DNA of 32,000 bases from Candidatus Brocadia sp. (GTDB lineage Bacteria; Planctomycetota; Brocadiia; Brocadiales; Brocadiaceae). The stretch covers positions 30,001 through 62,000 of the forward strand of contig CP091279.1 in assembly GCA_021650915.1 (NCBI GenBank), read 5' to 3'. The notes beneath the pieces were generated by a model that had not been told where the DNA came from, did no database searches, and saw nothing but the letters and a program-made list of their open reading frames with translations. Positions within the stretch are counted from its first letter, which is position 1. The number at the start of each line of letters is the position of its first letter. The translations under genes were made by a program, and so were the position numbers. Positions 26,593 through 32,000 of the stretch are shown here, in pieces.

Positions 26593-27010
26593 TCAAACCG
26601 GCACAAACCAGGAGCGCTTAAGCGAAATAGAAGGGCGCTTTTCAGGAGAAGAAGATGCCTTTTATAAAAACAGATTCTGTCCTGCCGTCAAAAATACCCA
26701 TGAAAAGGACAAGGCGTATTTTCTCGAAAAATTTAAAGCCGCAACCAGCGCCGCCTATGGCAAGGATTGGCTGATCCAACTGGAAAATCCGGGTAACCCT
26801 GGTTCTACAGAGATACCTGATACCCCCGTCCAGTATCCAAACCTGAAAAAAGGAGGCGACGAGGAATCATTCAAATGGTGGATGCGAAATGCGGGTAAGG
26901 AGAAGGATGCCGGAAGGAGACCCATTCCCGGTCTTAACAAGACCTTGCAGGGTATGCCGGCGTCCGAAGGGGCAAAGGCGCCCGTGCTGCCTTTTAATCC
27001 CAAAAAATAG
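26593..27010 (+). pseudogene. Orphan 3' gene fragment (about 138 codons, no start codon) abutting the intron 5' end, directly upstream of cas6
   Basis: An open frame without an ATG reads ...ERLSEIEGRFSGEEDAFYKNRFCPAVKNTHEKDKAYFLEKFKAATSAAYGKDWLIQLENPG...PFNPKK*. The stop is 51 nt before cas6. The product was not recognised. Confidence 0.45.
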
Positions 27011-27061
27011 ACGTTTCCATCTCTCGGGCGCAAAAATGCGGCAATAAACGGGGCAGGAACC

Positions 27062-28030
27062 ATGATCTCCACCTTTACCTTTTCTGTATTCCGGGTGACA
27101 CTCAGGGCAAGGGAAGACTTGCATTTACCCGGATACAAGGGCTCGGCGATCCGCGGCAGCTTTGGCCATACCTTCAGAAAGGTCGTCTGTCTGTTCGGGA
27201 AAAGGGATTGCAGTGGGTGTGATATTTCCCGGCAATGCGTCTATGCGTATCTATTTGAAACAATTGCCGACAAAAACGATCCCTTTCTGAGAAACAGGGA
27301 CAAGGCGGCGCACCCGTACATCATTCGCCCTCCCCTGGATGAAAAGGAGCGCTACGAGACGGGCGAAGATATGGTCTTCGATCTTATCCTCGTGGGCAGG
27401 GCCGTTGATTATCTTCCCTATTTTGCGTACGCCTTCATCCTTATGGGGGAACAGGGTCTGGGCAGGGGCAGGGGCAAATTTACCCTTCAGGCAATAGATG
27501 CCCTGGGGTTAAACGGGAGCCGTCTTGCCGTCTACCGATCAGGCGATGACCGATTAAAAAGAGAAACCCTGTCCATAACCGGCGATGAGATATTGAAGAG
27601 CAGACCCGTTGTGCCGGAGGCATGTACGCTGCAATTTTTAACCCGGCTGGATCTGAAGGAAAAAGGCAGGTATCCTGAACCCGATTTCAGCCTCTTGTTC
27701 CGCTCCCTGCTCAGGCGTATTGCCACCCTTGGCCATCTCCATTGCGGACTCGACTTCAGGAGCCTGGATTTTGGGGGATTAAGCCATGCGGCAGAGAAGA
27801 TCGGAACCGTAACGTCAAAATTGCGCCGGGAAGAGGCCGTCCGGTATTCAAACCGGCAGCGGCGCCGCATGCCCTTTGGTGGCTTGCTGGGTGAGATTAC
27901 CTTTGCCGGTGACCTGTCCCCTTTCTGGCCGTTCATGCTTCTGGGAGAGTGGATGCATGTGGGGAAGAAGACGAGTTTTGGCCTGGGAAGGTACTTCGTT
28001 AAAACAGCGCACGGGCGCGAAGGCGGATGA
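27062..28030 (+). CDS. cas6: CRISPR-associated endoribonuclease Cas6 (RAMP; Cys-rich DUF2276-type)
   Basis: The N-terminus reads LPGYKGSAIRGSFGHTFRKVVC...C.GC....C.YAYLFE. The C-terminal glycine-rich loop is HVGKKTSFGLGRY. A CRISPR array with an ATTGAGAC repeat tail lies 2 kb downstream. Confidence 0.85.
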   Translation: MISTFTFSVFRVTLRAREDLHLPGYKGSAIRGSFGHTFRKVVCLFGKRDCSGCDISRQCVYAYLFETIADKNDPFLRNRDKAAHPYIIRPPLDEKERYETGEDMVFDLILVGRAVDYLPYFAYAFILMGEQGLGRGRGKFTLQAIDALGLNGSRLAVYRSGDDRLKRETLSITGDEILKSRPVVPEACTLQFLTRLDLKEKGRYPEPDFSLLFRSLLRRIATLGHLHCGLDFRSLDFGGLSHAAEKIGTVTSKLRREEAVRYSNRQRRRMPFGGLLGEITFAGDLSPFWPFMLLGEWMHVGKKTSFGLGRYFVKTAHGREGG

Positions 28031-28047
28031 AACATCTTCAAGCTTTT

Positions 28048-28176
28048 GTAACACGTTGGTTTTTTGAAAAGGCAGGGGCGAAGCATTTGCCTGCCTGGGG
28101 TGTGAATACCTGTATGCCAATGTATGGCAAATGCTTCGCCCCTACACCGTGCGGTAACATCGTTATTAGAATATTA
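28048..28176. repeat. GTAAC-type repeat end plus inverted GGGGCGAAGCATTTGCC...GGCAAATGCTTCGCCCC module, starting 18 nt after the cas6 stop
   Basis: GTAACACGTTGGTTTTTTGAAAA begins at 28048. A 17-bp inverted pair lies at 28074-28090 and 28128-28144. The same module occurs in inverted arrangement in 28991-29141. Confidence 0.65.
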
Positions 28177-28444
28177 GTAACAATTTAGTTTTTTGAAAAA
28201 TCCCGAAGGGATGACATGATTATAGAAAAAGCGCGCCACCATATTTAACCCCGTAGGGGTGAAATATCGGGAAAATAGCGATACTATGTCACCCCTTACG
28301 GGGTTGACCATAATTGCATAACGATATGCTATAATCATGACATCCCTTCGGGATTAAAGAAGCGCTATTTTGTTCACCCGTAGTGATGGTGAGCGAAAGT
28401 ACACTGAATAAATACAAGAATTTTTCAAAAAGCTAAATTGTTAC
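28177..28444. mobile_element. MITE-like unit with GTAAC-type TIRs enclosing the 157-bp nested palindrome
   Basis: GTAACAATTTAGTTTTTTGAAAAA (28177-28200) is paired with TTTTTCAAAAAGCTAAATTGTTAC (28421-28444). Confidence 0.7.
28199..28355 (-). repeat. 157-bp nested-palindrome element, full copy
   Basis: The outer arms are AATCCCGAAGGGATGACATGATTATAG and CTATAATCATGACATCCCTTCGGGATT. The inner hairpins are AACCCCGTAGGGGTG and CACCCCTTACGGGGTTG. It is about 90 percent identical by eye to 30406-30563 in the opposite orientation. Confidence 0.8.
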
Positions 28445-28524
28445 GAATATTACGGTGTAAAAACTTCTTTTTTTGTAAGTTTTTGCGCAACCCGATGCAT
28501 CCTTTATCAGAAGGTACCGTTTGT

Positions 28525-28663
28525 GTAACAGTTTAGCTTTTTGAAAAACTCTCAATTTTATACCATATTTTGTTAAAAAATTGTATTATTAGAGCGATTT
28601 TTGGCCCTTTTTAAGCGATATTTCGACATTTTTTGGCAGTTTTTCAAAAAGCTAAATTGATAC
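28525..28663. mobile_element. MITE-like unit with GTAAC-type TIRs (139 bp)
   Basis: GTAACAGTTTAGCTTTTTGAAAAA (28525-) is paired with TTTTTCAAAAAGCTAAATTGATAC (-28663). Confidence 0.65.
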
Positions 28664-30405: not shown

Positions 30406-30563
30406 AATCCCGAAGGGATGTCATGATTATAGCCTGTTGTTATGCAAGTATGGTGAACCCTGTAGGGGTGGTATAGTATCGCTATTTTCCCGATATTTCA
30501 CCCCTACGGGGCTAAATATGCTGGTGTGCTTTTTTCTATAATCATGACATCCCTTCGGGATTT
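30406..30563 (+). repeat. 157-bp nested-palindrome element, full copy, between the array and the RT
   Basis: It runs AATCCCGAAGGGATGTCATGATTATAG...CTATAATCATGACATCCCTTCGGGATT and aligns with 28199-28355 (reverse) and 20234-20363. Confidence 0.8.
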
Positions 30564-30574
30564 TCCGGTCTTGC

Positions 30575-30593
30575 AGTTTTCGCTGAATAGTTA
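30575..30593. repeat. Solo terminal repeat of the ISBst12-like IS66 element
   Basis: TTTTCGCTGAATAGTTA matches the reverse complement of the left end at 21319-21338 over 17 nt exactly. The final base is T instead of C. Confidence 0.6.
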
Positions 30594-30792
30594 TGTTCTC
30601 CTTTATGTTCCCTGTCCGTTAAAAGATCCGAAACACGTAAAGGGTATTCTGCAGGGAATAGGCAAAAATGAAATAGGGCTGGAATTTCGCCTGGCCTATG
30701 GGTATGATAGACCGGATATAGCCTGTGGGGTTGGCATGGGATACAAAAAGACTGTTCCGGCGCTGGGCCTCATGAAAGAGCATGGAGGGGCC

Positions 30793-30834
30793 TGCTGCCT
30801 CTGAAGAGGCAGCATTCTCAACGTCTTCTTTTTT
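30793..30834 (+). terminator. Perfect 9-bp hairpin followed at a distance by a T-run; function uncertain
   Basis: TGCTGCCTC-TGAA-GAGGCAGCA spans 30793-30814. The T-rich tract TCTTCTTTTTT ends at 30834. The 12-nt gap between stem and T-run is atypical for an intrinsic terminator. Confidence 0.3.
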
Positions 30835-30852
30835 ACCGTCAGGAAGTGTGCG

Positions 30853-32000
30853 GTGGGTGAATATTTTGATGCCTTGTGCGAGCGCTCTGTCATGGATGCC
30901 GCATGCCGTCGCGTTATGAAGAAAAAGGCGCGGGGAGGCCTCGACGGGGTAGAAATTGATGATCAGCATACCGACGCAGACAAAATGGTCTCTGCCCTTA
31001 TCAAAGAGCTTCGTACGGGCGCGTATGTGCCGGTGCCGTACGCCAGGGGGGCAATACCGAAATTTGATGAACAGAATCAATGGCGTAAAATCTCATTGCC
31101 TTCGGTGCGGGACAAGGTCGTTCAGCAGGCATTTGTTGAGGCGCTGGGGCCGGTGTTCAACAAAACGTTCCTGGATTGCAGTTATGCCTATCGCGAGGGA
31201 AAAGGTCCCGTCAAGGCCATAAAACGGGTAGAGCACATCCTGCATACGCATCACATCCGGTGGGTGACGACCATGGATATCGACAATTTTTTTGACACCA
31301 TGGATCACGATATTTTCATCGGTGAGTTTACCAAAAAGGTTGCCGAACCGGAGATACTCCAGCTTGTGCGTCTCTGGCTCAAGGCCGGCTGTATCAGCGC
31401 CAGGGGTGACTGGATAGAACCGTATGACGGCATTGCGCAGGGGGCGGTTGTTTCCCCGCTTTTCTCCAATATATACCTTCACCCCCTCGACTGCTTTGCC
31501 ATCGGAAACAACTGCCTCTATGTGCGCTACAGCGACAATCTTATTGTTCTTTCTGAAACAAAAGAGACCTTGTACCTCTGGTACGAACAGCTAAAATCCT
31601 TCCTCGAAGACCGTCTCAGGCTCAGGCTGAACGAAGACCCGTATCCGTTTAAGGACAAAGAACGGGGGTTTGTCTTTTTAGGGATCTTTTTTCAGAACGA
31701 TGTGCGGCAGATAAGCACCGCGAAAGAAACAAACATCTGTCGCAGGATTAACTGGCTCACGGACAAAACGCAGCAAAAAGACCCGGAGATATTCTTGGAG
31801 AAATTCAACAAATGTATCGAAGGGGTGCAGCGATATTATTCCTGTATTGAGCCTCTCAGGCAGTTTGAGATTATTGACCAGCATATCCTGAAGCGTGTTC
31901 GGCCCCTGCTGGATCATTTTTATGAAAGGGGTTGTTTCCCGTCGCGTGACGATCTCAAATCATACATCATGAAGATTCGTTTTCTGGCGACTAAACCGGA
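30853..32000 (+). CDS. Group-II-intron-like reverse transcriptase adjacent to the CRISPR array (CRISPR-associated RT candidate); 3' end off-window; absent from the supplied ORF track
   Basis: I translated the frame with codon starts at 3n+1 by hand. It is open from 30805 to the window end. The motifs are RKISLPSVRDKVVQQA (RT1/2), TMDIDNFFDTMDH (RT3), GIAQGAVVSPLFSNIYLHPLD (RT4), YVRYSDNLIVL (RT5, YSDN in place of YxDD), FLGIFF (RT7) and a thumb-like IEGVQRYYSCIEPLRQF. The start is uncertain. GTG at 30853 lies upstream of the conserved FDALCERSV..A...V...KA.GGLDGV block, and the first ATG is at 30892. Confidence 0.85.
   Translation, partial: MGEYFDALCERSVMDAACRRVMKKKARGGLDGVEIDDQHTDADKMVSALIKELRTGAYVPVPYARGAIPKFDEQNQWRKISLPSVRDKVVQQAFVEALGPVFNKTFLDCSYAYREGKGPVKAIKRVEHILHTHHIRWVTTMDIDNFFDTMDHDIFIGEFTKKVAEPEILQLVRLWLKAGCISARGDWIEPYDGIAQGAVVSPLFSNIYLHPLDCFAIGNNCLYVRYSDNLIVLSETKETLYLWYEQLKSFLEDRLRLRLNEDPYPFKDKERGFVFLGIFFQNDVRQISTAKETNICRRINWLTDKTQQKDPEIFLEKFNKCIEGVQRYYSCIEPLRQFEIIDQHILKRVRPLLDHFYERGCFPSRDDLKSYIMKIRFLATKP

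Follow-up and report, generated by a model that had tools for sequence, protein, structure and literature searches.

Near its right end, a 32,000-nucleotide (nt) stretch of Candidatus Brocadia sp. (GenBank assembly GCA_021650915.1, contig CP091279.1, forward-strand positions 30,001 to 62,000; the whole stretch is hereafter called the window and numbered from its first letter) carries a CRISPR locus with a cas6 gene, a few repeats, and a reverse transcriptase (RT) gene. The locus is a known kind of system in mid-decay, consisting of cas6, a shrunken array, and an RT-Cas1 gene that mobile insertions have severed from the effector genes. It is very probably the final segment of a type III-D CRISPR immune locus with an RT-Cas1 adaptation module, recently disrupted by mobile DNA. 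The evidence comes largely from comparison with intact relatives, mainly L032 (JGI Ga0245520_00080, a 60-kb Brocadia contig) and L018 (a WBZY01 contig). The features of the locus are as follows; MITE stands for miniature inverted-repeat transposable element, and aa for amino acids.

26587-27010, plus strand: 3' remnant of a cas7 gene, 141 codons and a stop codon, with no start codon; in intact relatives this is the 858-aa type III-D Cas7/Csm3-like gene preceding cas6
27062-28030, plus strand: cas6, intact, 322 aa (Pfam PF10040, 1e-18; PADLOC Cas6, 1.5e-100)
28048-29517, no strand: block of at least eight MITE or palindrome units, about 1.47 kb, not present in L032, with 12-nt direct repeats on either side
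29519-29998, plus strand: CRISPR leader, about 480 nt, directly before the first repeat and collinear with L032 10976-11455 at 87% identity
29999-30310, plus strand: remnant array, with repeat R1 at 29999-30035, spacer 1 at 30036-30077 (42 nt), R2 at 30078-30114, R3 at 30210-30246, and a partial R4 at 30283-30310
30341-30564, no strand: MITE copy in the distal array, an inverted copy of 28197-28420 (inverted pairs I2 to I4 and I11), absent from L032
30607-30644, plus strand: degenerate terminal repeat (GTTCCCTGTCCGTTAAAAGATCCGAAACACGTAAAGGG), collinear at 97% with the terminal degenerate repeats of L032 (about 13412) and L018 (about 1460)
30853-32000, plus strand: 5' 382 codons of a predicted RT-Cas1 fusion gene, GTG start, open to the window end (RVT_1, 6e-26; PADLOC RT-Cas1 profile Cas1_IIIb, 2e-57)

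Comparison with intact relatives

L032 was located via two Cas6 variants of the same 90%-identity protein cluster. On a single strand it encodes Cas10, Cas7, Csx10/Cas5, a 139-aa protein, a 533-aa Cas7, Csx19, and an 858-aa Cas7/Csm3-like protein. Next on that strand come Cas6, the leader (about 480 nt), 26 repeats, the 784-aa RT-Cas1, and Cas2. The corresponding profile matches were Cas10 (1.6e-47), Cas5_IIId (7e-22), Cas7_IIId (3e-56), Csm3 (7e-75), Pfam Csx19, RT-Cas1 (2.5e-132), and Cas2 (1.3e-26); the 858-aa protein matched both Csm3 (7e-75) and Cas7_IIId (4e-46). Because these effector genes match type III-D profiles, the window locus is assigned to subtype III-D. The intact form is also represented by L033 (MWTE01000139.1, Brocadia sp. 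UTAMX2) and by L034 together with L018, both WBZY01 contigs.

The window and the intact Brocadia locus share the 3' end of cas7, cas6, and the RT at 97% nucleotide identity and the leader at 87%, and they have the same repeat, strand, gene order, and degenerate terminal repeat. Unlike the window, the intact locus has a full III-D effector operon, 26 repeats, no MITE block before the leader, and RT-Cas1 and cas2 in view. Measured against L032, the window has about 24 repeat-spacer units fewer, approximately 1.47 kb of additional MITE patchwork, and one extra MITE in the array. A previous sequence-only reading of the window had described the locus as eroded and its Cas6 and RT as laid out like an RT-linked type III adaptation module, with no subtype named. 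Both descriptions stand: the losses and insertions are visible by direct comparison, and the order is the same in the 97%-identical intact locus.

By blastn, window positions 26587-28047 corresponded to L032 9526-10986 at 97.4% identity, an alignment that covers the 141 cas7 codons, cas6, and 17 nt more. L032 joins position 10986 straight to its leader, without a MITE block. The translation of the cas7 remnant has five differences from the C-terminus of the protein encoded by L032 7373-9949. The identity of the remnant came solely from this nucleotide comparison. PADLOC profiles gave no match to it, a BLASTP comparison with cas7 of L011 and L022 yielded no significant match, and a 134-aa query (26564-27010) found no homolog among 5.8 billion proteins, despite the near-match in L032, which makes a negative outcome of that search untrustworthy for short, poorly conserved tails.

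A search of the 32-kb window for effector genes (cas10, cas7/csm3, cas5/csx10) found only these last 141 codons of one cas7-like gene. The open reading frames (ORFs) in 1-24000 are unrelated, encoding transposases, topoisomerase I, DUF763, and similar proteins, in agreement with the earlier statement that no effector (cas10/csm/cmr) genes occur in the 32 kb. Effector genes are present in L024 to L035, L011, and L022. The last two are distant relatives with the same architecture (L011, RT 52% identical; L022, RT 56% identical, with CARF proteins and two arrays).

On two counts, the damage is recent. In L024 to L027, the cas6 region is 99.7% identical to that of the window and the start of the MITE block is held in common, yet the whole effector operon is kept; the truncation in the window is therefore recent and strain-specific. 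Moreover, cas6 and the visible part of the RT gene are intact ORFs whose ratios of nonsynonymous to synonymous substitution rates (dN/dS) versus L032 are 0.26 and 0.29, respectively, which likewise argues for recent damage.

Two of the relatives have peculiarities of their own. In L034 (6798-9352), gene calling splits the 858-aa cas7 into two ORFs of 591 and 194 aa, which suggests a frameshift or an assembly error. In L022, arrays at 8188-9606 and 13090-14087 flank RT-Cas1, and their repeats differ at one loop position (CTCGAAAGAG versus CTCGTAAGAG); L022 also carries CARF-RelE and Csx1-like ancillary genes, both of which are lacking from the Brocadia locus.

cas6, leader, and array

The DUF2276-type cas6 proposed from the sequence at 27062-28030 was borne out by profile hidden Markov models. 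Its product matched Pfam CRISPR_Cas6 (PF10040, the former DUF2276) with 68 bits against a cutoff of 25, and its match to the PADLOC Cas6 profile PDLC01477 was full length. An identical protein is on record as Cas6 of Ca. Brocadia (UJS20800.1), and the topoisomerase I encoded in the window is likewise a Brocadia protein.

The 37-nt repeat, GTTCCCTGCTCTTTGAAGAGATGAAAGGGATTGAGAC, occurs at 29999-30035 with one mismatch, at the terminal position, and at 30078-30114 with none; zero such occurrences are expected by chance. Both copies end in ATTGAGAC. R3 has six mismatches and is followed by a 36-nt interval and the 28-nt partial R4. The array is thus a minimal one, with two near-identical repeats, a 42-nt spacer, and three degenerate copies, as the sequence-only reading had recognized in describing a tailed 37-nt-repeat array with merely two good repeats. 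In L018 and L032, this repeat makes up arrays of 19 to 26 units that lie upstream of the RT ortholog, and the arrays of L019, L020, and L022 have its 15-nt 3' end in common. None of the window spacers is shared with the relatives, and no protospacer for spacer 1 was found in the viral contigs searched.

The repeat RNA is predicted to form a hairpin (-8.2 kcal/mol) in which the 3' UUGAGAC stays unpaired. A hairpin with a free 3' end is the usual shape of a Cas6 substrate and yields an 8-nt tag on the CRISPR RNA (crRNA).

The 95-nt interval between R2 and R3 (30115-30209) is overlong for a single spacer and includes a 10-bp hairpin with perfect pairing, GGTTCAATCG/CGATTGAACC. Either a pair of spacers flanking a ruined repeat or a small insertion could account for it.

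Between the array and the RT, a solo end of an insertion sequence (IS) had been proposed in addition to a MITE. The MITE was found, at 30341-30564, and it lies inside the distal array. The solo IS end, considered for 30565-30852, was ruled out: positions 30605-30852 are collinear at 97% with both L032 and L018, and the collinearity with L032 extends over 30605-32000 at the same identity, so native sequence, with no IS end, precedes the RT.

The predicted RT-Cas1 gene and its phylogeny

The RT gene begins at 30853 and remains open to the window end, and its RVT_1 match supports the earlier call of a group-II-like RT ORF. Over their first 381 aa, the 784-aa RT-Cas1 proteins of L018 and L032 share 97% identity with the window RT. 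In these orthologs, the protein continues into a Cas1 domain (2e-68), and cas2 starts 87 to 93 nt after RT-Cas1 (Cas2, 1e-26 to 3e-27). L018, which was found by a metagenome scan with the RT, has the 784-aa RT-Cas1 followed by a 91-aa Cas2 and preceded by at least 19 repeats identical to the window repeat and a degenerate terminal repeat. A Cas1 domain fused to the RT, as had been suggested, is therefore predicted for the window gene as well, of which the first 382 codons are in view.

In a rough neighbor-joining tree of 184 RT domains, the window RT nested in a clade of 143 members, 122 of them with detectable Cas1, and ordinary group II intron RTs fell outside. Clade members without detectable Cas1 are 293-568 aa long, and many of these are probably truncated. 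Most of the best 150 representatives out of 1.84 billion proteins are 750 to 800 aa, and the best match to the window RT in the protein collection is 60% identical. Placement in this Cas1-fused radiation, not among group II intron RTs, and without flanking intron RNA, agrees with the affiliation proposed from the sequence.

We also considered whether the plus-strand RT, with no role in CRISPR, might be a standard group II intron or group-II-like enzyme that by coincidence neighbors a few repeats and an orphan cas6. Its best NCBIfam match is group_II_RT_mat (3e-71), the solved structure nearest to it in sequence is that of the GsI-IIC group II intron RT (6AR1, 7e-37), there is a weak match to the maturase domain GIIM (22 bits, under the cutoff of 23), and a genuine group II intron lies 5 kb away. 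Against this, the score for the group II RT/maturase family TIGR04416 is 240 bits, below the cutoff of 300, and no Rfam intron RNA family was detected around the gene at the gathering threshold or at E<=1, the upstream 250 nt being the array terminus. The 97% identity to an RT-Cas1 with cas2 downstream, the position in the Cas1-linked clade, and the cas6-array-RT order conserved in L011, L022, and L032 point the same way. Identification as an intron RT with no CRISPR role was accordingly rejected as extremely improbable.

The match to the Thiomicrospira Cas6-RT-Cas1 structure (7KFT; 1e-13) is far weaker than that to 6AR1, which argues that the window RT belongs to a different RT-Cas1 lineage.

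An altered active-site motif

Motif 5 of the window RT reads YSDN instead of the canonical YADD (aa 226-229; window 31528-31539). YSDN is also found in L018, L022, and L032, and in P0001 to P0009 and P0011. The nearest clade has Asn throughout, with YSDN in 11 members and Y[S/A]DN in 15. Replacement of the second Asp by Asn was found in 42 of the 143 representatives of the Cas1-linked clade versus 1 of 41 outside it, and within that clade the Asn cases comprise two larger all-Asn groups and scattered cases. The motif A Asp is conserved, as is the first Asp of motif 5.

The literature that we searched on CRISPR-associated RTs makes no mention of YSDN or YADN in RT-Cas1. When the equivalent residue of Ty1 RT is changed from Asp to Asn, polymerase activity is retained in vitro (PMC2148107), so a YSDN enzyme need not be dead. 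Tentatively, and with considerable doubt, we propose that the window RT-Cas1 may belong to an undescribed class of Cas1-fused RTs in which a conserved Asn (YSDN/YADN) replaces the second Asp of YADD. If this is true and complementary DNA synthesis is altered or abolished, many RT-associated CRISPR systems would acquire spacers in ways unlike those of the YADD enzymes studied so far. The enzymes might, for instance, need a different metal, add only short tails, or serve purely in structure or RNA binding. The conserved YSDN offers an inexpensive way to test whether every RT-Cas1 enzyme does reverse transcribe.

MITE patchwork

The sequence-only reading had placed at least eight MITE or palindrome units between cas6 and the array, and a repeat search found them in 28048-29518. 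The block is made up of repeat families D1, D3, D5, D8, D9, and D15 and of inverted pairs I1 to I16, in units of about 140 to 270 nt with terminal inverted repeats (TIRs) of 24 to 27 nt. Direct repeats of 12 nt, CTTCAA(G/A)CTTTT, flank the block at 28036-28047 and 29518-29529. A target-site duplication (12 nt, 11 of 12 identical) was seen for the whole block alone. The copy at 30341-30564 has perfect 27-nt TIRs at 30406-30432 and 30536-30562. Both 28048-29517 and 30341-30564 have the properties of MITEs, being small and non-coding, with TIRs and dispersed copies; further copies lie in the window at 6359-6560, 18339-18518, and 20092-20539, as well as in other Brocadia contigs.

The possibility that the 1.5-kb patchwork is a second array was examined and rejected. 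The long hairpins of the MITEs (28192-28356, 29043-29118, and 30402-30569) gave sub-threshold Rfam matches to plant and animal microRNA precursor models (MIR393, mir-548, and others), which are chance matches; no CRISPR-DR family of Rfam was detected, either at the gathering threshold or at E<=1.

Alternatively, the observed layout could be an artifact of contigs mis-joined across MITE, IS, or intron copies. The region is packed with dispersed repeats, three other assemblies diverge inside the patchwork, and short-read contigs break at 26560 and 28125; contigs from at least 20 samples break about 30 nt inside the intron that abuts the cas7 remnant. Several observations speak for a genuine arrangement, however. 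The cas6-leader-array-RT order is that of L032, the flanks around each insertion are collinear, and the 12-nt duplication marks the insertion site. In addition, the left junction, between intron and cas7 remnant, is present in the independent assemblies L001 and L002 and in Logan contigs from at least 20 samples. An assembly artifact is thus very unlikely.

Beyond the MITE block, two of the diverging assemblies continue into other genes. L024 (GCA_021463075.1) has type I restriction-modification genes at 10970-14781, with no array or RT-Cas1 within 10 kb, and L001 has heavy-metal ATPase genes at 2976-6658. The divergence reflects either real rearrangement at a hot spot or chimeric short-read assembly at the MITEs.

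Predicted function and its limits

In relatives, the intact form runs on one strand from cas10, cas7, csx10/cas5, a small-subunit gene, a fused cas7, csx19, and the 858-aa cas7 through cas6, leader, and array to RT-Cas1 and cas2. By analogy with type III systems, the leader would drive transcription of the array, and Cas6 would cut each repeat at the base of the hairpin, 8 nt from the 3' end, so that the crRNAs would carry a 5' AUUGAGAC tag. These would be loaded into a Csm-like effector for interference. RT-Cas1 and Cas2 would insert new spacers, derived from RNA or DNA, at the leader-proximal repeat.

In the window strain, the interference step has no genes in cis. The locus alone probably still makes and processes a very short pre-crRNA and perhaps integrates spacers; we infer that interference is impossible without type III effectors supplied from another part of the genome. 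It is best read as a recently disabled remnant whose function would require such effectors.

Alternatively, cas6, the leader, the mini-array, RT-Cas1, and cas2 could be a detached working module feeding a type III effector elsewhere, for example, after the operon was moved by inversion between intron or IS copies. The intact cas6 and RT genes with dN/dS near 0.3 are compatible with this, as is the retention of the leader and of two near-identical repeats around a unique 42-nt spacer. The effector operon persists in strains whose cas6 is 99.7% identical, which would date its loss or relocation as recent. There is also precedent in Vibrio vulnificus, where the array with high transcription is one of two spacers and the adaptation module forms its own transcription unit (PMC6821258). 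On the other hand, no effector gene lies within 26 kb upstream, and the last cas7 gene has been physically cut short and not just relocated. MITEs part cas6 from the leader and interrupt the array, and the low dN/dS mostly dates from before the breakage. A detached working module is possible but on the whole unlikely, and we favor the interpretation of the locus as a decaying remnant of a type III-D system.

A number of points weigh against that interpretation in turn. Cas6 scored below the cutoff of NCBIfam TIGR01877 (24 versus 58.7 bits), and a scan of the leader for consensus promoters found no convincing one. Cas1 and cas2 lie beyond position 32000, and the fusion is deduced from the 97%-identical ortholog; with the YSDN motif at the active site, RT activity is putative. 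The absence of effectors holds for the 32-kb window, and effector genes may exist elsewhere in the genome. Finally, other assemblies depart from the window inside the MITE block (L024 at 28353, L025 and L026 at 28771, and L001 at 28845), and no independent contig spans 28846-30604, the right half of the patchwork and the mini-array.

Relation to known systems

The V. vulnificus YJ016 III-D system is alike in having an effector cassette with csx19 and cas6, an RT-Cas1 and Cas2 adaptation module, and a small array beside that module, and experiments demonstrated that it acquires spacers from RNA (Gonzalez-Delgado et al. 2019, PMC6821258). By its published description, it differs from the Brocadia locus in having the adaptation module on the opposite strand, two Cas2 proteins, and two flanking arrays. 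The Brocadia locus has a single cas2 (in the ortholog), lies entirely on one strand, and has the YSDN motif; the V. vulnificus study cites the canonical YADD and reports that active-site RT mutations affected acquisition (PMC6821258).

The Cas6-RT-Cas1 fusions of type III-B systems (Marinomonas mediterranea; Thiomicrospira, 7KFT/7KFU, PMC8102632) also have a group II intron-derived RT fused to Cas1 that acts with Cas6 and Cas2. Unlike these, the Brocadia locus has a separate cas6 upstream of the array, and its RT is only distantly similar to the 7KFT chain. With the group II intron RT/maturases, such as GsI-IIC (PDB 6AR1), the Brocadia RT shares RT motifs 0 to 7 and a maturase-like thumb, and among solved structures they are its best match. 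It differs from them in having no intron RNA, a Cas1 fusion in its orthologs, a score below the family cutoff, and YSDN in place of YADD.

Our literature search found no paper linking Brocadia with CRISPR-associated RTs, and the locus adds an anaerobic ammonium-oxidizing (anammox) planctomycete lineage to the RT-Cas1 type III systems. To our knowledge, these systems offer cells the sole known way to write RNA sequences into DNA, and they have been put to use as transcriptional recorders. Near-identical strains with intact, effector-only, and adaptation-only versions of the locus form a natural series of CRISPR dismantling by group II introns, IS elements, and MITEs. Beyond this decay series and the YSDN motif, the finding is the correct annotation of a known type of system.

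Upstream insertions

Two further elements lie to the left of the cas7 remnant.

24860-26592, minus strand: truncated group II intron, with an RT/maturase ORF at 24840-25892 (350 aa) and a 5' RNA part from 25893 to about 26586-26592
23414-24781, minus strand: ISAs1-family transposase gene with a DruA-like N-terminal domain (NCBIfam transpos_ISAs1, 1.4e-44; Pfam DruA, 2e-25, DDE_Tnp_1_assoc, and DDE_Tnp_1)

The RT/maturase of the intron scored 392 bits against TIGR04416, above the cutoff of 300, and matched RVT_1 at 6.5e-41. Its maturase domain is cut short, with GIIM covered at positions 2-55 of 80. The 3' end of the intron, with domains V and VI, is missing, and the intron is truncated at about 24860 by the ISAs1-type element. 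Rfam gave no intron RNA match to this minus-strand element at the gathering threshold or at E<=1, for either domain V/VI or D1-D4. The sequence GTGTG lies at 26592-26588 on the minus strand, on the junction with the cas7 remnant. Together, these features fit a group II intron copy that is truncated at its 3' end. The gene before cas6 had been described as cut by a group II intron, and this was right in that the cas7 remnant abuts the 5' end of the intron; the remaining part of cas7 does not lie across the intron and is absent from the window.

Transposase genes are very dense in 1-24000, with DDE_Tnp_1 genes at 17-832 and 7096-8928, IS110 at 18658-19668, IS66 at 21584-23005, and the ISAs1-family gene at 23414-24781. 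Window positions 23860-24859 recur in L024 at 98.8% identity, away from any intron. The DruA-like domain of the ISAs1-family transposase (PF14236, 2e-25) is otherwise known from the Druantia defense system.

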